Below, piece after piece: positions 1,992-33,889 of a stretch of DNA of 42,461 nt. The stretch is from Akkermansiaceae bacterium UBA4145 (lineage in GTDB: Bacteria; Verrucomicrobiota; Verrucomicrobiia; Verrucomicrobiales; Akkermansiaceae). The translations under genes and the position numbers were made by a program. Under the pieces are notes generated by a model. The model was given only the letters and a program-made list of their open reading frames with translations. It ran no database searches and was not told the origin of the DNA. The first letter of the stretch is position 1. The number at the start of each line of letters is the position of its first letter. The DNA is taken from contig DFWB01000200.1 of the NCBI GenBank assembly GCA_002380675.1, positions 8,663 through 51,123 of the forward strand, written 5' to 3'.

Positions 1992-3266
1992 TCAGAGAAT
2001 CATTCCTGCTCCCACCGTCTCATTGCTTCCCGGGTCAATCAGGATAAACGACCCGGTATGCCGGTTCCGGCGATAAGCATCATGCAACAAGGGGGCCGCG
2101 GATCTCAGCTTGATCCGGCCAATCTCATTCAGCTCAAAGGAGTCTACCTCCTCCTGCTTGCGCAAGGTATTGATGTCCACCTTGTAGCGAACCTCCTCGA
2201 CGATCGCCTTGGTTTCCCTCGTGGTGTGCCGAAGGATATATTTTCCTCGAGTCCGCAAGGGCTTTTTGGAAAACCAGCATACCATGGCATCAATATCCTG
2301 GCCGACTGCAGGCTGGTTATTGGGCTTGGCGATCATGTCGCCCCGCGAAAGGTCAATCTCGTCATCCAGAGTGAGACACACCGACTGTGGGGCAAACGCT
2401 TCCTCCTGTTCGCCATCCGCTGAATGAATTGCCTTCACCCGGGTGGTAAACCCGGACGGCATCACCGCCACTTCGTCCCCCGGCTTGAAGACTCCCCCGG
2501 CAACCCGGCCGGCATACCCTCGAAAATCATGCCACTGATCACTTTGGGGACGGATCACCCATTGAACAGGAAAGCGAGGGTCGATATGGTTCTCCTCACC
2601 CCCGATGTAGACATTCTCCAGATGATAGAGCAGCGACGGGCCCTCATACCAGGGCGTTTCTCCTGACCGCTCTACCACATTGGTTCCCTCCAGAGCAGAG
2701 ATCGGGATCGCTTGAATTCCAATAATGCAATCCAGCCGGGAGGCGAAGGATTCATATTCCCGCACGATGTTCTCGTAGATCTCCTGAGAGTAATCCACGA
2801 GGTCCATTTTGTTGACCGCAAGAACGACGTGCTGGATACGAAGCAAGTTAGCAATAAAGGAATGCCGTTTGGTCTGTTCGATGATCCCCTTCCGGGCATC
2901 CACAAGAACAATGGCCACATTCGCGGTAGAGGCCCCAGTCACCATGTTTCGGGTGTACTGGATGTGCCCGGGAGTATCCGCGATGATGAACTTGCGCTTA
3001 GGCGTTGCGAAATAACGATAGGCAACGTCAATAGTAATGCCCTGCTCTCGCTCGGCCCGCAGACCATCAGTCAAGAGCGCCAGATTGACATGCTCATCGC
3101 CACGTTTGCGGGAACTCTCCTCAATCGCTTCAAGCTGATCCTCAAAGATCGATTTTGAATCATGAAGCAAGCGGCCAATCAGGGTCGACTTCCCATCATC
3201 GACCGAACCTGCTGTGGTAAATCTCAATAAATCCATTGTTTTTGCGTGTGTCATCGCCGCCCGCAT
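1992..3266 (-). CDS. cysN: Sulfate adenylyltransferase subunit 1 (GTPase subunit), not fused to APS kinase
   Basis: 424 aa. GTPase motifs are TAGSVDDGKSTLIGRLL (G1), DTPGH (G3) and NKMD (G4). It is colinear with E. coli CysN. In-frame alternative ATGs at 3254 and 3236 leave the exact start uncertain. Confidence 0.93.
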   Translation of the reverse strand: MRAAMTHAKTMDLLRFTTAGSVDDGKSTLIGRLLHDSKSIFEDQLEAIEESSRKRGDEHVNLALLTDGLRAEREQGITIDVAYRYFATPKRKFIIADTPGHIQYTRNMVTGASTANVAIVLVDARKGIIEQTKRHSFIANLLRIQHVVLAVNKMDLVDYSQEIYENIVREYESFASRLDCIIGIQAIPISALEGTNVVERSGETPWYEGPSLLYHLENVYIGGEENHIDPRFPVQWVIRPQSDQWHDFRGYAGRVAGGVFKPGDEVAVMPSGFTTRVKAIHSADGEQEEAFAPQSVCLTLDDEIDLSRGDMIAKPNNQPAVGQDIDAMVCWFSKKPLRTRGKYILRHTTRETKAIVEEVRYKVDINTLRKQEEVDSFELNEIGRIKLRSAAPLLHDAYRRNRHTGSFILIDPGSNETVGAGMIL

Positions 3267-3311
3267 CAGGAGCTCGATCTCTTTTTTTCAGGCAGGAACC
3301 TTCCCGGAGGA

Positions 3312-4217
3312 TTAAAAGTATCCTTCCTTCTTCCGGTCTTCCATCGCGGTTTCCGACCTCTTGTCATCCGCCCGATTACCGCGCTCTGTCTGACGAGCTG
3401 CTGCCACTTCCTCGATAATCTTCTCCATCGTGTCGGCAGTTGACTCCACCGCACCAGTGATGGTGGCATCTCCCATGGTCCGGAAACGGATCATTTTCTG
3501 TTCCACCACCTCGCCTTCCCGGGGCTGCACAAATTCAGAGACGGCAAGAATGGTCCCATTCCGGCAGACCGTTTCACGCTCATGAGCGTAATAGAGACTG
3601 GGCAATTGGATGCCTTCTCTCTGCATGTACATCCAGACGTCCATCTCGGTAAAATTGGAGAGGGGAAAGATCCGGAAATGCTCTCCTTCGTGTTTCCGCC
3701 CGTTAAAAAGATTCCACAACTCGGGGCGCTGGTTCTTCGGATCCCACTGCCCGAAATCATCTCGGTGAGAGAAAAAACGCTCCTTCGCGCGAGCCTTCTC
3801 CTCATCGCGGCGCCCTCCACCCAGCGCGGCATCAAATCCATACTCTTCGATCGTATCCAGAAGGGTCGTAATCTGCAGGCTGTTCCGGGACGCGTTCGCA
3901 CTCTTTTCTTCCTCAACTTTCCCCTCGTCAATCGACTTCTGAACCGAACCCACAACCAAGCGAGCCCCCAGTTTTTCTACAAAGGCATCCCGATAGTCGA
4001 GGGTCTCCTGAAAATTGTGCCCTGTGTCAATGTGCACCAGTGGAAAGGGCAGTTTGGCTGGCCAGAAGGCCTTACAGGCCAGGTGAGCCATCACGATCGA
4101 GTCCTTTCCTCCGGAAAAAAGGAGGGCAGGATTTTCAAATTGGCTCGCCGTTTCTCTCAGCACGAAAATGGATTCGGCTTCAAGCTGGTCGAGGTGGCTT
4201 AGTTGGTAGTCAGGCAT
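3312..4217 (-). CDS. cysD: Sulfate adenylyltransferase subunit 2
   Basis: It carries the PP-loop LFSGGKDSIVMAHL, HIDTGHNF and the typical CysD C-terminus. The track ORF extends to 4307, but homology starts at MPDYQLSHLDQLEAESI (ATG 4217). That start overlaps the cysC stop by 8 nt (ATGCCTGA), consistent with translational coupling. Confidence 0.92.
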   Translation of the reverse strand: MPDYQLSHLDQLEAESIFVLRETASQFENPALLFSGGKDSIVMAHLACKAFWPAKLPFPLVHIDTGHNFQETLDYRDAFVEKLGARLVVGSVQKSIDEGKVEEEKSANASRNSLQITTLLDTIEEYGFDAALGGGRRDEEKARAKERFFSHRDDFGQWDPKNQRPELWNLFNGRKHEGEHFRIFPLSNFTEMDVWMYMQREGIQLPSLYYAHERETVCRNGTILAVSEFVQPREGEVVEQKMIRFRTMGDATITGAVESTADTMEKIIEEVAAARQTERGNRADDKRSETAMEDRKKEGYF

Positions 4218-4830
4218 GAGACTCTCCGGTGTGCCCCGCGGAACGCGCAGCGAGGTAGTTGAGAAGGATCTGTGCGCAGGCCTCTGCGCTCTGAGAATTG
4301 GTATCAAGGGTCAATTCCGCTTCACTCTGAGGCTCCTCGAACCCGCTATCCTTGCCGGTGAAGTCTGCAATACCTCCCGCACTGGCCTTGGCGTAGAGGC
4401 CCTTGGGATCGCGCTGCGCGCAGGTCGCGTAATCTGCTTTTACGAATACCTCCACAAAATCGCTCCCGATGATCTCTCTTGCGATAGATCGCAGGGACTC
4501 ACGCGGGGTGATCGCGGCGACGATGGTGATGACTCCGGCCTCGGAAAAGAGCCGAGCGACCTCTGCATTACGACGAATGTTTTCCGCCCGGTCCTCATCA
4601 GAAAAACCAAGGTCCGCATTCAGCCGGGAACGGAGGTTATCGCCATCGAGTATTACGGTGAAGCGACCCGCCTGATTCAACTCGCGCTCGACAATGTTCG
4701 CGATGGTTGACTTGCCTGATCCCGAAAGCCCATAAAACCATAGCACGATCCCCTTCTGCCCCAGCAATTGCTCCTTGTCCTCTCTTTTGAGAAACCGGTG
4801 GAACTCGGTATGAATATTGGTCTCAGGCAT
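4210..4830 (-). CDS. cysC: Adenylylsulfate (APS) kinase
   Basis: 206 aa with P-loop YGLSGSGKSTIA, LDGDNLR and FSDEDRAENIRR, a canonical APS-kinase layout. ATG at 4830. Confidence 0.93.
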   Translation of the reverse strand: MPETNIHTEFHRFLKREDKEQLLGQKGIVLWFYGLSGSGKSTIANIVERELNQAGRFTVILDGDNLRSRLNADLGFSDEDRAENIRRNAEVARLFSEAGVITIVAAITPRESLRSIAREIIGSDFVEVFVKADYATCAQRDPKGLYAKASAGGIADFTGKDSGFEEPQSEAELTLDTNSQSAEACAQILLNYLAARSAGHTGESHA

Positions 4831-12519: not shown

Positions 12520-14331
12520 ATGACAAGTTCGAGAATGCGGAGCTGCCGCATCAAAACTCTTCTCGGGGTGGGATTTCTTCTAAGCCCTCTATCAGCCCTC
12601 GCTGAAGAACCCTACAATGTCCTGCTTATCATTGCGGATGATTTGAATAGTCGCATCGCGCCGTTGGGAGACCCACAGGCGATCACCCCTCACCTGACCA
12701 GACTGGCTCAGCGCTCGGTGACTTACCGGAATTGTGTGAGCCAATACCCGTTCTGTGCCCCTTCCAGAGGATCCTTCCTTACCGGACTCCACCCATGGAA
12801 CCTGGGCATCCACGCCGCCGGTGGCAACCAGGCCAACGGAGAAAATATTGTGCCAGGGCGAATGCGGATATCCCAATTCTTCCACTCACAAGGCTATTGG
12901 ACTGGCAGCTACGGTAAAGTTGAGCACTACGAACGTGCCGAACGATGGGATGAGCTCATTCCACGCGCTCTCGCCATAGATGGCACCCTCCAATCAGTTC
13001 AGGATTTCAGCGCCCACAAGGGTATCAGCGGTAACACCAACTTCCTGATTTATGAGGACGGGGAGCCAGCAAATTTTATGGACGGGCTGACAGCCACCAA
13101 CGCCCTTACCGCCATGGAAAAATGCCTGGCCAGAGACCAGAGGTTCTTTGTCGCGGCGGGTTTCTACATGCCGCACACCCCTTGGATTGTGCCCGCCAGC
13201 ATTGCAGATCTCCATGATCCAGCGAACTTCGTTCTACCCGAATCCCCGCCAGGCTCCTACGACAACGCCTACTGGCCACCTTACGCCTATACCTACGGCA
13301 AAGCGAGTGACACCCGGCCCTACCTTACGGAGGACGAACTTCGCTCCCTGTTTCATGCCTACTACAGTGCCGTCACGTTGATGGATTATAATCTGGGGCG
13401 CCTGCTCGATTTTGCAAATTCACACAATCTCTGGGACAACACGGTGATTGCTTTCATCAGTGACAATGGATTTAGCCTGATGGAGCATCAACACCTCTAC
13501 TCGAAAAGGAACTACTCCCGTGAATCCATCCACGTCCCGATGATGATTCACCATCCGGGAATGACGTCCGAAGGCCGCTTCTGTGATCGCCAGGTAGGAC
13601 TGGTTGACCTTATGCCAACCCTCATCGAGCTAGCCGGAATTGAGCCTTATCCGAGGCATCTGGACGGCCAGTCTCTTGCCCCGCTGCAGGAAGACCCCGA
13701 CAGAGAGTGGGAAACGCCCGCACTCTCCTGTCTGACCTACCGGGATGGTTCGAAGCCAAGGTTCCGGATCGGGCAGGTTGGTCCGTGGAAGCTGGTCGAA
13801 GGGCCTTTCTCTGCCTCTTTGCGGAGGGTCATGAACCATCGTGATGATCCCTTCGAACATTTTGGAACATTCCCGAACGGGATCACCCCTCAGGCCCTTG
13901 GCTCCCTCGAGACGGCCGTGGCAGAGATTCCCTTTATTGATAACGTGTTTTACGTAGGCAAACCGGATCTGGGACAGACTGACAGAGACGGGGATGGATT
14001 AGCTGATGAGACCGAAATTGACCTCCTCCCCCTTGGTTTTCATCCTTTCGAGGAAAGCAGCACAGAATTGAGGCGCCTCGTGAGTAGCGCCCTTGAAGTG
14101 GACCCAGCTCCCGATGGATTTACCCTCACCTTCCCTGACTTTCGCGTTAACCCCGCGGAGTTTCGCGCGTGGCATACGTATCCACTCTCTCTCGAGAGGT
14201 CGTCCGACCTTTCGACGTGGGAGAATGTCCCTGAAAATTTCCAGCTAAATTCCTTGGGGGCTCTCCAGTGGCTGGAAAGTCCAGACCCTGTATCCGGCAA
14301 ATCGTTTTACCGGCTGCGCATCGCTCCGTGA
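12520..14331 (+). CDS. Secreted Cys-type (formylglycine-dependent) sulfatase with a C-terminal DxDxDG + FYRLR module
   Basis: It has a signal peptide. Motifs are NVLLIIADDL and the sulfatase signature QYPFCAPSRGSFLTG (Cys79, codon 12754-12756), plus PHTPW and SDNG. AGGAG lies 4 nt upstream of the ATG. The start is 6 nt after the upstream stop, so it is probably co-transcribed. Confidence 0.92.
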   Translation: MTSSRMRSCRIKTLLGVGFLLSPLSALAEEPYNVLLIIADDLNSRIAPLGDPQAITPHLTRLAQRSVTYRNCVSQYPFCAPSRGSFLTGLHPWNLGIHAAGGNQANGENIVPGRMRISQFFHSQGYWTGSYGKVEHYERAERWDELIPRALAIDGTLQSVQDFSAHKGISGNTNFLIYEDGEPANFMDGLTATNALTAMEKCLARDQRFFVAAGFYMPHTPWIVPASIADLHDPANFVLPESPPGSYDNAYWPPYAYTYGKASDTRPYLTEDELRSLFHAYYSAVTLMDYNLGRLLDFANSHNLWDNTVIAFISDNGFSLMEHQHLYSKRNYSRESIHVPMMIHHPGMTSEGRFCDRQVGLVDLMPTLIELAGIEPYPRHLDGQSLAPLQEDPDREWETPALSCLTYRDGSKPRFRIGQVGPWKLVEGPFSASLRRVMNHRDDPFEHFGTFPNGITPQALGSLETAVAEIPFIDNVFYVGKPDLGQTDRDGDGLADETEIDLLPLGFHPFEESSTELRRLVSSALEVDPAPDGFTLTFPDFRVNPAEFRAWHTYPLSLERSSDLSTWENVPENFQLNSLGALQWLESPDPVSGKSFYRLRIAP

Positions 14332-22483: not shown

Positions 22484-23113
22484 TTATCCTACGGCCTTGC
22501 GCAAGCCCTCTGCCACTGTGTCCCAATTGATAACGTTAAAGAAGGCCCCGACGTAATCAGGACGTCGGTTCTGGTAATTCAGGTAGTATGCGTGCTCCCA
22601 CACATCAAGGCCAAGAATTGGAACACACCCCGCACATCCAGAAATTTCACCCATGAGGGGATTGTCCTGATTCGCGGTGGAGCAGACCCCCAGCTTGCCT
22701 TCTTTATCTGAGCAGAGCCACGCCCATCCGGAACCAAACCTTGTCATCGCCGCCTTCGTGAAGGCTTCCTTAAAACCGTCAAGAGAGCCGAATGCAGCGT
22801 TGATACCGTCCGAAACCTCACTGGTCGGCTCGTTGGACCCACCTGGCTTGATGCAGTCCCAGAAGTGACTGTGATTGAAATGGCCCCCTCCGTTGTTCCG
22901 CACAGCCCCCCGGATGTCTTCGGGAACATCCCCGATATTCATCACCAGCTCACAGATGGACTTGTCCGCAAGCTCCGTTCCTTCGATTGCCGCATTCAGG
23001 TTAGTTACGTAGGCATTGTGATGTTTGCTGTGATGGATTTCCATCGTGCGCGCGTCGATGTGCGGCTCGAGCGCATCATATGCATAGCCAAGATCAGGAA
23101 GTGTATGAGCCAT
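22484..23113 (-). CDS. sodA: Fe/Mn-family superoxide dismutase (Mn-type signature)
   Basis: [32 protein letters not shown]...[13 protein letters not shown]...GSGWAWL...[18 protein letters not shown]. The true start is ATG 23113. The track ORF start at 23290 adds 59 non-homologous residues. Confidence 0.93.
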
Positions 23114-23243
23114 TGGAATAATGTGTTGATAGATGTTAGCATGTTTGCTTTGCGCCTCCCGGAGATTTCCGGATAAATGACACCCAAAGCTTCTTCCTTC
23201 GTAAGAAAGCAGCTTCCATCCATTCCGCAAGGGCAACTTCACC

Positions 23244-23801
23244 ATGGAACTACAACCTTCGCTCTTTCTTCTCCTCCTTATTCTGGGCACGTCGCTGGGG
23301 GCATCCCTGACTTGGTTCCTGTGTCATAACAGCAACCAGGCGACGCGCATTCGTCACCGCGAGCGCACCAAGGCTCTCCTTAAATCTTCTGCAGAGCTCG
23401 AGGCCTGCTGCGCCAAGCTGGAAGCACAAATTCAGAAGCTCCGCAGCAGCGAGGCTGGATCCCTGCGGCGTGAAGTAAAACTTGAGACCCTCCTCCAAGC
23501 TGAGCAACGACGTATTGCTGACAGGGAGCAACTTCTGAGAGAGTCCGAATCCCGGATTCTTCAGGGATTCCAGTCAGCCTCTCTCCGGATTCTCCAAGCG
23601 AGTGAGAAAAGCGAGTCCGAGAATACCAGTCCAGCAAAGGCACCCTTCAGGGGAAAGGGCTTTTCCGAAGATCAGGATGCAAACAACCCCTCCGCCACGC
23701 TCCGGGAGAACGTGGTTTCCGGTATGCTCGAAGATAGTGCTGCAGTTCTTCCCGCACCTTCTCAAGACACGCCGGTCTCCCTAACGCGAATTGAACCGTA
23801 G
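23244..23801 (+). CDS. Hypothetical membrane-anchored coiled-coil protein
   Basis: 185 aa with an N-terminal TM segment ([20 protein letters not shown]), then a heptad-like charged region and a low-complexity tail. I recognise no family. It is divergent from sodA. Confidence 0.4.
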
Positions 23802-30955: not shown

Positions 30956-32215
30956 ATGAAAAGCATCCACCTTATCTTCCCCTCGACTGCAGCCATCGTG
31001 CTGGTCGGCATCGCTGCACTTGCAGATGACTCCAAGTCCGAGGCAGCCCCGGCAGCCAAAGCTCCAGCGAAGTTTACCAACTCTACCCCTACTCCGGCCC
31101 AGTGGGACCTCCCTTCGACTCACCGACTCTTTGTCAGCAAGAAGATCCACGAGCTCGTCACCAAAAAGGGAGGGCCCGGCGAGGCTCCCGAAATGAAGGA
31201 CTACGAGGAAGTAGCGCCCAGAGCCAATGAGGCCAAGTACAAGATGATCGCCCTGAAGGGGGGGGAGTTCCTCATGGGCTCACCAGAGGGCGAACATGAA
31301 AATCGCACAGACGACGAGGGGCCCCAGAAGAAAGTGAGGATCGAACCTTTCTGGATCGGACAGACTGAAATTCCCTGGGCTCTCTATAAGCCCTTCTACG
31401 AAAACGGTATTGCTCGCAATAAGGACGGCAGCCTGCTCGCGGCCGATAAGGACAAGGAAGTGACCGTCCGCGGGAAACAGCGCAAGAAAGCAGTGAAAGA
31501 TGCTCTCGCCCGTGGTGATAGCAGTAACATCGTAGACGTGGTCTCACAGCCAACGCCCCAATACCACGATATGTTCGGGAGCGGTGAGCACGCCTCCGAA
31601 TTGAACTATCCTGCCATGTGCACCACCCACCACGCTGCCTCCAAGTTCTGCCAGTGGCTCAGCGCCCAGACTGGCCACTTTTACAGGCTCCCCACCGAGG
31701 CCGAGTGGGAATATGCGTGCCGTGCCGGAACGACTACCGCCTTTCACTTCGGGGACGACATCGCCAAGCTGGACGACTACGCGTGGCACGGCGATAATTC
31801 CGAATTTACCTATTATCCGGTCGGCACCAAAAAGCCGAATCCGTGGGGACTTCATGACATGCACGGCAATGTCGGCGAGTGGGTCCTTGATGGATTCAGC
31901 GAAGGATATCGTAACACCATCAAGGATGGAGCCGTCAATCCCTGGAATATTTCCCTTACTCGTTATCCTCGGATCGTAAAAGGGGGCTCATGGGACCAGA
32001 ACCCTGATGAATGCCGAAGTGCAGCCCGTGTGCAATCCGTGAATGACTGGAAAGATACGGACCCGCAGGTGCCAAAAAGTATCTGGTATCATACGGACGG
32101 TCAGTTCATCGGCTTCCGTATCGTGCGACCACTGAAAACCCCAACCGCCGAGGAGATGCACGTTTACTGGAACACTGACTGGTGGGAACCCACCAGAAAC
32201 GCCGAGGACCTTTAG
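30956..32215 (+). CDS. Formylglycine-generating enzyme family protein (FGE-sulfatase domain), secreted
   Basis: It has a signal peptide. Motifs are MIALKGGEFLMGSP, YRLPTEAEWEYACRAGT, GLHDMHGNVGEWVLD and RIVKGGSWDQNPDECRSAAR. Confidence 0.88.
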   Translation: MKSIHLIFPSTAAIVLVGIAALADDSKSEAAPAAKAPAKFTNSTPTPAQWDLPSTHRLFVSKKIHELVTKKGGPGEAPEMKDYEEVAPRANEAKYKMIALKGGEFLMGSPEGEHENRTDDEGPQKKVRIEPFWIGQTEIPWALYKPFYENGIARNKDGSLLAADKDKEVTVRGKQRKKAVKDALARGDSSNIVDVVSQPTPQYHDMFGSGEHASELNYPAMCTTHHAASKFCQWLSAQTGHFYRLPTEAEWEYACRAGTTTAFHFGDDIAKLDDYAWHGDNSEFTYYPVGTKKPNPWGLHDMHGNVGEWVLDGFSEGYRNTIKDGAVNPWNISLTRYPRIVKGGSWDQNPDECRSAARVQSVNDWKDTDPQVPKSIWYHTDGQFIGFRIVRPLKTPTAEEMHVYWNTDWWEPTRNAEDL

Positions 32216-32247: not shown

Positions 32248-32280
32248 AAAGGCGCAGCTTCGTGCTGCGCCTTTCTTGTC
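32248..32280. terminator. Bidirectional rho-independent terminator between the FGE gene (+) and the peroxiredoxin gene (-)
   Basis: There is an 11-bp perfect stem, AAAGGCGCAGC (32248-32258) with GCTGCGCCTTT (32264-32274), and a 5-nt loop. The stem arms supply an A-run 5' and a T-run 3' (TTTCTTGTC on the plus strand). Confidence 0.7.
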
Positions 32281-32292
32281 GTCGGATCGGGG

Positions 32293-32811
32293 CTATTCGA
32301 GAGCCTCCAGAGCCTGAAGCAAATCTTCCCCTTGGCTACCCGCAGACACCTTCTCTTGCTTCCAGACCAGCTTCCCATCCTTGAATAAGTAAGCCTGCCG
32401 GGAGGCAAATTTCCCCAGATGTGGAACGCCAAAGGCCTTGATAATTCTTCCTTTCACGTCTGCCAGAAGTTCAAAGGGGAGCATTTGCTTTTCCACAAAG
32501 GCTTTCTGAGCGGATACCGTGTCGAAAGACACTCCGTAAATTCTAACACCTTTCTTCAGTAACTTTTCGTTTACGTCCCGTAAACTACATACCTGCTTTG
32601 TTCATCCCCCGGTCAGGGCCTTGGGATAGAAAAAGAAAAACGCCAATCCCTCTGCTGCCACTTCGTGAACTCTGATGAGCTCTCCCTTATGGTTCTTCGC
32701 CTCAGCCTTGGGAAGGGCTTTGCCAAGGTCTAGGCTTTCCGCCATCGTTGGCTGAGCGAAGGCAAACAGCGACCCAAGCCCCGTTAGCCATCTCGAAAGT
32801 TTTATCTTCAT
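32293..32811 (-). CDS. Periplasmic BCP/PrxQ-type peroxiredoxin with an in-frame TGA (codon 70) at the peroxidatic Cys position; either a candidate selenocysteine protein or a very recent pseudogene
   Basis: Track ORFs 32602..32874 and 32293..32532 are in the same frame and are joined by a single TGA (32604-32602). The joined product is MKIKLSRWLTGLGSLFAFAQPTMA|ESLDLGKALPK...LAFFFFYPKALTGG[U]TKQVCSLRDVNEKLLKKGVRIYGVSFDTVSAQKAFVEKQMLPFELLAD...AYLFKDGKLVW. This is colinear with E. coli BCP (FYPKAMTPGCTVQACGLRD). Confidence 0.75.
32557..32595 (-). other. SECIS-like mRNA stem-loop immediately 3' of the in-frame UGA
   Basis: In the minus-strand sense, the UGA is followed by 6 nt, then CAG(G)UA-UGUA-GUUUACG-GGA-CGUAAAC-GAAAAGU-UACUG. 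The upper stem is a perfect 7 bp (32585-32569). The G-rich apical loop starts 24 nt after the UGA. Confidence 0.5.
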
Positions 32812-33889
32812 GACTCGACCCATATCCCGCCCGGGCAGGAATGCCAGAAGGATTTTCGTTGCCCTCATCATCATCGTAGCCGGTGCATTCTCCCTCCTGG
32901 TCGGTCCCAGACTTTGGGAAAGGCTCCAGACTCCCCGGCAAGGGCAAGAACAAGCCTTGGAGACAGTTCCTGTTTACTCCAGCGACCATCCCATGATGGG
33001 CACAACAGCACGGATTGTGGTCTATGCGACAGATCTGAAGAAAGGAGAGGTCGCCATCAAGGCCGCATTCGATCGCGCTGATGAGATCGGTTTCATCTGC
33101 AGCGACTACAATCCGGAGAGCGAACTGATGCGTCTGTGCCGGGGGCCGGTTAATGAACCCATTCCAGTCTCCCGTACCCTTGCGACAGTTCTTACCCATG
33201 CACACAGCATCGCAGAAACCACCGAAGGAGCCTTCGATCCCACTCTTGGGGGATTCACCAAGCTCTGGCGAAGATCGAAGCGAAAAAATGCGCTGCCTGA
33301 TCCCTCTCTCCTCGAGAGAGCCCGCAATGCGGCAGGCTGGACAAAATTCGACGTCTTTCTGGAACAGCAGACCGTAATCGTAAAAGACGAAAACCTTCTC
33401 TTCGACCTCGGGGGCATCGCCAAGGGCTATGCCGCGGATGAAATGCTACGCGTCATCAAGGCACACGGGATTTCCTCCGCGATGGTAGCTGTCGCAGGAG
33501 ACGTCAGACTGGGCTCTCCTCCCCCGGGCCGATCCGGGTGGACCGTTGGCATCAGGACCCTGGGGGCCGACGTTGAGCAAGTCATGCACGTCGCCAACTG
33601 CGCTGTCTCCACCTCGGGGGATATTGAACGCTATGTGGATATCGAGGGAACCCGCTACTCGCATATCATCGACCCCGAGACGGGCATCGGGCTCACCCGG
33701 CGAATCGCCGCCACGGTAGTCGCACCCACCGCAGTCCAAAGCGACCCTCTGGCCACCTTCTGCTGCATCAAGCCACAATTCGCCTCCAAGATCTTTGCAG
33801 CCGGAGAGATTTCCTGCCGAATTGTAACTCTTGGGGATGGCCCCTTCGACCAGAGAACCCGGCAATTCCCACCCTTAACCCGCCCCTAG
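32810..33889 (+). CDS. apbE: ApbE-family FAD:protein FMN transferase
   Basis: 359 aa with an N-terminal membrane anchor (IFVALIIIVAGAFSLLVG). Motifs are MMGTTARIVVYA, DYNPESEL, FDPTLG, DLGGIAKGYAADE and AVSTSGD...YSHIIDPETG. Its ATG 32810-32812 overlaps the peroxiredoxin ATG (32811-32809) head-to-head. Confidence 0.85.
   Translation: MTRPISRPGRNARRIFVALIIIVAGAFSLLVGPRLWERLQTPRQGQEQALETVPVYSSDHPMMGTTARIVVYATDLKKGEVAIKAAFDRADEIGFICSDYNPESELMRLCRGPVNEPIPVSRTLATVLTHAHSIAETTEGAFDPTLGGFTKLWRRSKRKNALPDPSLLERARNAAGWTKFDVFLEQQTVIVKDENLLFDLGGIAKGYAADEMLRVIKAHGISSAMVAVAGDVRLGSPPPGRSGWTVGIRTLGADVEQVMHVANCAVSTSGDIERYVDIEGTRYSHIIDPETGIGLTRRIAATVVAPTAVQSDPLATFCCIKPQFASKIFAAGEISCRIVTLGDGPFDQRTRQFPPLTRP

Follow-up and report, generated by a model that had tools for sequence, protein, structure and literature searches.

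Here we describe a candidate selenoprotein gene from Akkermansiaceae bacterium UBA4145, located on the minus strand of a 42,461-nt stretch of contig DFWB01000200.1 (hereafter the window, to which all coordinates refer). The gene encodes a peroxiredoxin (Prx) of the BCP/PrxQ type and is interrupted in frame by a TGA (32604-32602) at the position of the peroxidatic Cys. We regard it, with a probability of about 0.9, as a genuine selenoprotein gene in which selenocysteine (Sec) is inserted via this UGA at the peroxidatic site. This reading is carried by an otherwise intact open reading frame (ORF), by the correspondence of the TGA to a Cys in homologues, by deep conservation under purifying selection and by a covarying RNA structure that is coupled to the TGA.

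Gene structure and predicted product

ORF calling splits the locus into two minus-strand ORFs (32602..32874 and 32293..32532). These lie in one common frame, and translation of 32874..32293 gives TGA 32604-32602 as the sole internal stop, which bears out a first-pass annotation, made from the sequence alone, that described two ORFs parted only by a TGA. The start that is kept across orthologues is ATG 32811 (MKIKLSRW...), from which the orthologues are colinear; conservation does not extend to the upstream ATGs at 32874. Coordinates of the features discussed are collected in Table 1.

When Cys is substituted at the TGA, the translated product matches the Pfam domain AhpC-TSA (PF00578, E=7e-26) over residues 30-149, and the match spans the TGA junction. 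The local sequence YPKALTGG-U-TKQVC consists of the PxxxTxxU motif published for Sec-containing peroxiredoxins (PMC13188914; PMC2398784 Table 2) and a resolving Cys at +5. The latter is also found in the loci that were identified by protein similarity (L001-L015) and in the listed Cys-forms; it was required by the pattern of the genome scan described below. The column of codon 138 holds only Arg in six representative Sec-forms, and the Arg is present in the motif of every sequence inspected.

The best NCBIfam matches are the Bcp and PrxQ models, neither at equivalog level (NF006960 Bcp, 85 bits against a cut-off of 140; NF053650 PrxQ, 57 bits against a cut-off of 260). The PrxU model NF040737 is matched with 25.7 bits against a cut-off of 270, so the protein is not PrxU. 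The best relatives in the PDB are BCP, PrxQ and Dot5 peroxiredoxins, the peroxidatic Cys of which aligns with the TGA column. By these sequence comparisons the protein is a member of the BCP/PrxQ subfamily and an equivalog of neither named protein. Pfam, NCBIfam and PDB alignments thereby agree with the earlier assignment of the TGA to the peroxidatic Cys of a BCP/PrxQ-type Prx with the +5 Cys retained. The leader reads as a basic n-region followed by a hydrophobic core, with a T-x-A site, and all Sec- and Cys-form homologues have a comparable one. The product is predicted to be an exported, periplasmic BCP/PrxQ-type peroxiredoxin with approximately 148 mature residues.

Table 1. Features of the candidate selenoprotein locus and its flank (window coordinates)
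Feature	Position	Strand	Details or basis
Complete candidate selenoprotein gene	32293..32811	-	172 codons including the Sec codon; stop TAG 32295-32293
Predicted Sec-type (secretory) signal peptide MKIKLSRWLTGLGSLFAFAQPTMA	32740..32811	-	Cleavage after TMA, then E; read from sequence by eye
Active-site motif P-K-A-L-T-G-G-U (PxxxTxxU)	32602..32625	-	Sequence; agrees with published Sec-Prx motif
In-frame TGA, inferred Sec codon, peroxidatic position	32602..32604	-	TGA in 45/45 copies
Resolving Cys (TGT), U70-TKQV-C75 (U-x4-C)	32587..32589	-	Sequence
bSECIS-like hairpin GUUUACG-GGA-CGUAAAC	32569..32585	-	5' arm 32585-32579, GGA loop 32578-32576, 3' arm 32575-32569
Possible lower helix around the hairpin (CAG...CUG in the window)	32557..32595	-	Window minimum free energy fold; weakly supported
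Conserved Prx active-site Arg, codon 138 (...FASRQAYLF...)	32398..32400	-	Alignment column
GC-rich hairpin GGCGCAGC-ACGAA-GCUGCGCC, then T-run, with T/A-run flanks	32248..32271	.	Between convergent Prx and FGE-sulfatase genes; read by eye

Conservation of the TGA

The nearest database proteins (77-97% identity) are exclusively C-terminal fragments of 99-100 aa. Inspection of the DNA of these fragment loci revealed the same TGA in a syntenic ApbE, Prx and FGE-sulfatase (formylglycine-generating enzyme) arrangement, in which gene callers had made a small ORF of its own out of the N-terminal part. That automatic annotation would miss the gene had been anticipated, and callers indeed split it wherever it was found.

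Genomes of named GTDB species were scanned with the peptide pattern P-K-A-x-T-G-G-TGA-T-x-Q-V-C, which is blind to the hairpin. This identified 30 loci in approximately 28 species, all of them metagenome-assembled genomes (MAGs) of marine Roseibacillus/Akkermansiaceae. The window, 15 loci identified by protein similarity and the 29 pattern loci of which the sequence could be recovered together make up 45 copies, corresponding to 34 distinct proteins. All 45 copies have the TGA, and the aligned residue is Cys in 113 more distant homologues. The copies form a clade A (...CSLRD[VA]NE..., 62-99% identity within the clade) and a clade B (...CSVRDAFE..., 55-97%), which are 43-62% identical to each other.

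The ratio of nonsynonymous to synonymous substitution rates (dN/dS) lies at 0.03-0.21 on the upstream side of the TGA and at 0.04-0.12 on its downstream side, with a dS of approximately 0.5-2. Frameshifts and extra stops are absent in 44 of the 45 copies. The remaining copy, on a low-coverage metagenome scaffold of 1.7 kb (L007:1-114), has an additional in-frame TAA (FFFF*PK, TAT to TAA) that is either a sequencing or assembly error or the mark of a truly decayed copy. Two MAGs contain two TGA-containing paralogues each, on separate contigs and all with the hairpin (L019/L020 in JAKVCR01 and L017/L039 in CAUZKZ01); a lineage without Sec decoding would thus have to keep several dead genes under purifying selection.

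A conserved hairpin downstream of the TGA

The perfect GGA-loop hairpin of Table 1 begins 16 nt past the UGA, with a UGA-to-loop spacing of 23 nt. Its position is as the first-pass annotation had it, and the spacing, then argued to suit a bacterial selenocysteine insertion sequence (bSECIS), falls within the published range. Published bSECIS criteria are a loop of 3-9 nt, a stem of 4-16 bp, a G in the first two loop positions, a distance of 16-37 nt from the UGA and a minimum free energy (MFE) of no more than -7.5 kcal/mol (PMC13188914). The window hairpin agrees with these in its GGA loop, its stem of 6-7 bp, its spacing and a window MFE of -8.8, and an MFE <= -7.5 is reached in 27 of 29 sequences.

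Among the 29 distinct sequences the GGA loop and the three pairs adjacent to it are invariant. The arms differ by clade: clade A has GUUURCG/CGYAAAY, whereas clade B has (C)GGUGCG/CGCAUU(C) and can form an alternative fold with a 9-bp stem and a single bulged U. Pairing is found in 93.6% of the cells of the alignment; sliding the 3' arm by 1-3 columns lowers this to 22-43%. Three of the hairpin pairs show two-sided changes, and none of 500 shuffles matches the observed pairing or covariation score. Several of the compensating changes replace an amino acid (Leu to Val, Val to Ala, Asn to Phe) or move between the two Ser codon families. The significance of the hairpin derives from the comparative data, not from the fold of the single sequence.

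Third-codon-position variability over the hairpin codons is 0.12, among the two lowest values in a gene where 0.4-0.7 is typical. A second dip of 0.10-0.24, as deep as that over the hairpin, is found at approximately 32712-32732 (Prx codons 27-33) and another at codons 3-8; both could reflect an embedded ApbE promoter or another constraint at the RNA level.

The hairpin had also been described as extendable by a lower stem (32595-32557), and this part of the proposal is partly supported. The window MFE fold includes it, and an enclosing lower helix was seen by eye in approximately 17 of the 29 orthologue MFE folds (CAG/CUG, CAA/UUG, GCAG/CUGC, GCCAA/UUGGC). Its register varies, and a lower stem in fixed register was not recovered by RNAalifold. 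An Rfam search over the hairpin with a permissive E-value gave no bacterial SECIS match, only a meaningless match to a long non-coding RNA.

The hairpin in Cys-forms

Since the hairpin lies in coding sequence, controls were run on homologues with Cys at the corresponding position. The first consisted of 117 distinct metagenome Cys-forms in which the local peptide motif is the same (G-C-T-x-Q-[AV]-C-[ST]-x-R-D). Not one of them keeps all six core pairs (6/6), two to three pairs being most common. The Arg codon is CGG in 21% of the 117 Cys-forms against 100% of 27 distinct TGA-forms, and the GGA loop triplet is found in 24% against 100%.

The second control concerned two Cys-forms that carry TGC, one nested in Sec clade B (P0078) and one beside it (P0054). 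Both retain the peptide YPKA[LM]TGG-C-TKQVCSVRD, and at the hairpin site both read CGGTYCG-CGA-CTCCTTY, with 3/6 pairs and a CGA loop. The structure, therefore, travels with the TGA. Over the 40 nt that follow the codon, the mean MFE did not separate Sec-forms (-8.1) from Cys-forms (-8.9); because the Cys set includes GC-rich organisms, raw stability was dropped in favor of column-wise pairing.

The hairpin is thus maintained by covariation and tied strictly to the TGA. The tabulation of orthologues that the first-pass annotation had proposed as a check shows the same: TGA and hairpin are kept together, distant homologues have Cys, and the two nearest Cys-forms lack the hairpin. It had also named an outcome that would speak for a nonsense pseudogene, namely close relatives with TGC or TGT and an unrelated downstream sequence; the orthologues keep both TGA and hairpin.

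Proposed Sec decoding and its alternatives

In the proposed mechanism the hairpin, with its stem of 6-7 bp and invariant GGA loop, would function during translation as a bacterial SECIS. It would be bound by SelB with its Sec-tRNA(Sec) load, which would insert Sec at the UGA against competition from RF2. The N-terminal signal peptide would direct export to the periplasm, where U70 would reduce peroxide and be converted to a selenenic acid. This would condense with C75 to an intramolecular selenenylsulfide, from which a thioredoxin-like reductant would regenerate the enzyme. We infer the dependence on SelB and tRNA-Sec, the incorporation of selenium, the export and the catalytic cycle from the gene and its conservation.

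Four points weigh against decoding as Sec. The MFE of the single window sequence has a z-score of just -1.86, with 10 of 200 shuffles folding equally well. The hairpin on its own folds at only -3.7 to -7.9 kcal/mol. The covariation amounts to few independent events (clade A versus clade B, and an A-U/G-U/G-C series within clade A) among related sequences. Finally, no selA, selB, selD or tRNA-Sec gene was found in the 42-kb window or in approximately 1.07 Mb of retrieved DNA, which is uninformative since it represents a small fraction of the genomes.

The searches behind this last point were the following. ARAGORN and Rfam gave no match to tRNA-Sec or other Sec machinery on the window, and Pfam gave none to SelA, SelB or SelD on 29 window ORFs, where an EF-Tu-like match is CysN. 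ARAGORN detected nothing but a tRNA-Leu on 34 related loci. A tblastn search of the approximately 1.07 Mb with Escherichia coli SelA, SelB and SelD had matches limited to the window CysN and an unrelated contig, L090. The SelB of L090 was considered as a route to a Roseibacillus SelB and rejected: the contig is of Gemmataceae origin, and the top 120 matches are all from Gemmataceae and at least 77% identical. This soil contig (Planctomycetota; L090:527-3368) also encodes a leader-bearing BCP of the Cys-form (GGCTAQACSFRD), and selB starts approximately 580 nt downstream of it, an adjacency that may be a coincidence.

Sec use is documented elsewhere in the order. In a survey of 5,200 genomes (Peng et al. 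2016, Table S2), the Sec-using Verrucomicrobia number three: Rubritalea marina DSM 17716 and two single-cell genomes of marine origin. Rubritalea is placed in the same order as Roseibacillus, and the survey thereby lends indirect support to Sec use in the present genome.

Two alternatives that accept translation through the UGA survive best, and both are improbable. In the first the Roseibacillus clade decodes UGA non-canonically, by means of a 17-nt GGA-triloop element and either a divergent SelB with a new binding mode or no SelB. It keeps its small probability because the element has the smallest size that the consensus model allows; if true, this would be no ordinary bSECIS but a recoding signal of a new class in bacteria. 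The second, just as doubtful, is programmed read-through independent of Sec, in which the hairpin aids a near-cognate tRNA (Trp, Cys or Arg) at the UGA in the absence of SelB and tRNA-Sec. This would place Cys or another residue at the active site or result in a regulated mixture of truncated and full-length protein. It would account for the hairpin, which is unusually small for a SECIS, and is compatible with the lack of Sec machinery in the small genome fraction searched. However, the UGA is exactly at the catalytic Cys, where only Cys or Sec would work and where TGC would be the simpler solution. The hairpin moreover fits the bSECIS model, including loop G-G and spacing, Sec-containing Prxs with the same motif form a large known family, and the order has documented Sec users.

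Less probable still is a true split gene that yields a secreted N-terminal peptide of approximately 45 residues and a separately initiated C-terminal fragment of 99 aa, the parts either assembling or acting apart. Translation of the second part would start at the GTA/GTG codon three codons past the TGA, and many orthologues do have a start-like GTG or ATG there. The window, however, has GTA (Val), which is not a start codon. The C-terminal fragment would also have neither a signal peptide nor the PxxxT half of the active site. There would be no role left for the downstream hairpin, and the break would fall exactly at the catalytic residue.

A recent nonsense pseudogene, in which a change of TGC or TGT to TGA inactivated an ordinary BCP, would explain the two fragments given by gene callers and the additional TAA of the low-coverage scaffold, yet we consider this reading refuted: the same TGA occurs in approximately 28 species and in two clades as distant as A and B, dN/dS indicates purifying selection before as well as after the TGA, at a dS near saturation, and 44 of 45 copies are intact. 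Genome-wide reassignment of UGA (code 4, Trp, or code 25, Gly), although it occurs in some endosymbiotic Verrucomicrobiota, is hardly conceivable: UGA to Trp has been reported for two ciliate endosymbionts of the Verrucomicrobiota (PMC13462651), but the present lineage is free-living, marine and sulfatase-rich, homologues have Cys rather than Trp or Gly at the aligned column, no other window gene requires TGA read-through, and TGA serves as normal stop of approximately 8 of 34 likely window genes, with lengths equal to those of their orthologues (e.g. a 435-aa oxidoreductase with the same length in orthologous loci), which refutes both codes.

Comparison with known selenoproteins and peroxiredoxins

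Selenoproteins designated Prx (TxxU) were described from the Sargasso Sea, as COG1225 (Zhang, Fomenko & Gladyshev 2005), and from the dataset of Global Ocean Sampling (GOS), as pfam00578 (Zhang & Gladyshev 2008). The GOS data contain 253 Sec-Prx (TxxU) sequences (PMC2398784), and the family is present in 78 sequenced bacteria. Of the marine selenoproteins, Sec-containing TxxU peroxiredoxins of this BCP type belong to the most abundant and to those known longest. As the first-pass annotation noted, Prx-like selenoproteins are known mainly from marine metagenomes, where TxxU proteins, BCP-type ones with leader peptides among them, have been catalogued since 2005.

With its pfam00578/COG1225 domain, its TxxU motif and its many Cys homologues, the window protein is, as far as sequence tells, a member of this family. 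It has in common with it the domain family, the PxxxTxxU motif, the peroxidatic Sec, here predicted, and the surface-ocean habitat. Many GOS members are likewise of the BCP type with U-x4-C and a leader (e.g. ...YFFPKADTPGUTKQACGFRD and ...FYPKALTPGUTKQSC). The family commonly has T-P-G-U, whereas the window clade has T-G-G-U. The exact window peptide was not found in the searched portions of the supplements of two GOS papers, and a literature search for Roseibacillus together with selenocysteine found no paper. In the literature searched, which includes these supplements in part, there is no description of the Roseibacillus/Akkermansiaceae home, of the T-G-G-U variant, of so compact a conserved SECIS or of Sec/Cys switches accompanied by its decay.

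PrxU of Eubacterium (Peptoclostridium) acidaminophilum (Sohling et al. 2001; NF040737) is a biochemically characterised Sec-peroxiredoxin. As proposed for the window Prx, it has Sec in place of the peroxidatic Cys of a peroxiredoxin, encoded by UGA; it is thioredoxin-dependent, and its UGA is followed by a SECIS. PrxU belongs to another Prx subfamily and is described as stemming from a strict anaerobe. The window Prx, in contrast, has a predicted signal peptide, and its neighbouring genes point to an aerobic marine organism that degrades polysaccharides.

E. coli Bcp and the solved structures of BCP/PrxQ proteins (e.g. 2cx3/2cx4, 3gkk, 5iiz and yeast Dot5 2a4v) are of the same fold family and share PxxxTxxC, CP-x4-CR and the conserved Arg. 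E. coli Bcp and the solved BCP/PrxQ proteins use Cys, whereas the window Prx has a candidate Sec codon and a leader and scores below the Bcp cut-off. As to the RNA element, the SECIS of E. coli fdhF and fdnG and the bSECIS consensus (Zhang & Gladyshev 2005; summarised in PMC13188914) are likewise stem-loops in the coding region 3' of the UGA with a small G-G loop. The window element differs from the E. coli SECIS in its 17-nt core and its loop of 3 nt, the minimum of the model, and has no sequence similarity to it; binding by SelB is a prediction.

Genomic surroundings

The Prx start ATG (minus strand, 32811-32809) and the start ATG of the longest ApbE ORF (plus strand, 32810-32812) share one CATG palindrome (32809-32812). 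If both starts are real, Prx and ApbE are divergent genes without intergenic space, each with its promoter inside the other gene. Gene calls of two orthologous loci (L001 and L003) show the same 2-nt overlap; other callers begin ApbE approximately 60 codons later.

The GC-rich hairpin between the convergent Prx and FGE-sulfatase genes (Table 1) is likely a bidirectional intrinsic terminator. A simple terminator scan did not flag it because just three T follow on the minus strand. Consensus scans for sigma-70 promoters and for terminators were uninformative.

An Fe/Mn superoxide dismutase (SOD) gene (22484-23290, minus strand) lies approximately 9 kb from the Prx and is syntenic with the Sec-Prx in L001 and L005. 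Its longest ORF of 268 aa starts approximately 60 residues before the SOD domain; 209 aa are called in orthologous loci. The window further contains a cysN/cysD/cysC sulfate-activation cluster, a sulfatase and the FGE-sulfatase (1992-4830, 12520-14331 and 30956-32215). Such a cys/sulfatase neighbourhood is typical of marine polysaccharide-degrading Verrucomicrobia.

Implications

The current understanding of selenoproteins is unchanged by this gene, the main value of which lies in annotation correction and trace-element ecology. The annotation of every public copy examined shows two hypothetical proteins, one of 47-129 aa, the other of 99-100 aa. A rule that looks for the TGA in PKAxTGG-TGA-TxQVC followed by a hairpin centred on CGGGACG would mend the gene in at least 28 species. 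The clade also represents a clean natural series of switches from Sec to Cys with matching decay of a very small SECIS, a series that can serve to define how small a bacterial SECIS can be and to benchmark predictors of selenoproteins. For the organisms themselves, the finding implies that abundant marine polysaccharide-degrading Roseibacillus/Akkermansiaceae would need selenium for an exported peroxidase, which bears on their cultivation as well as on their trace-element ecology.

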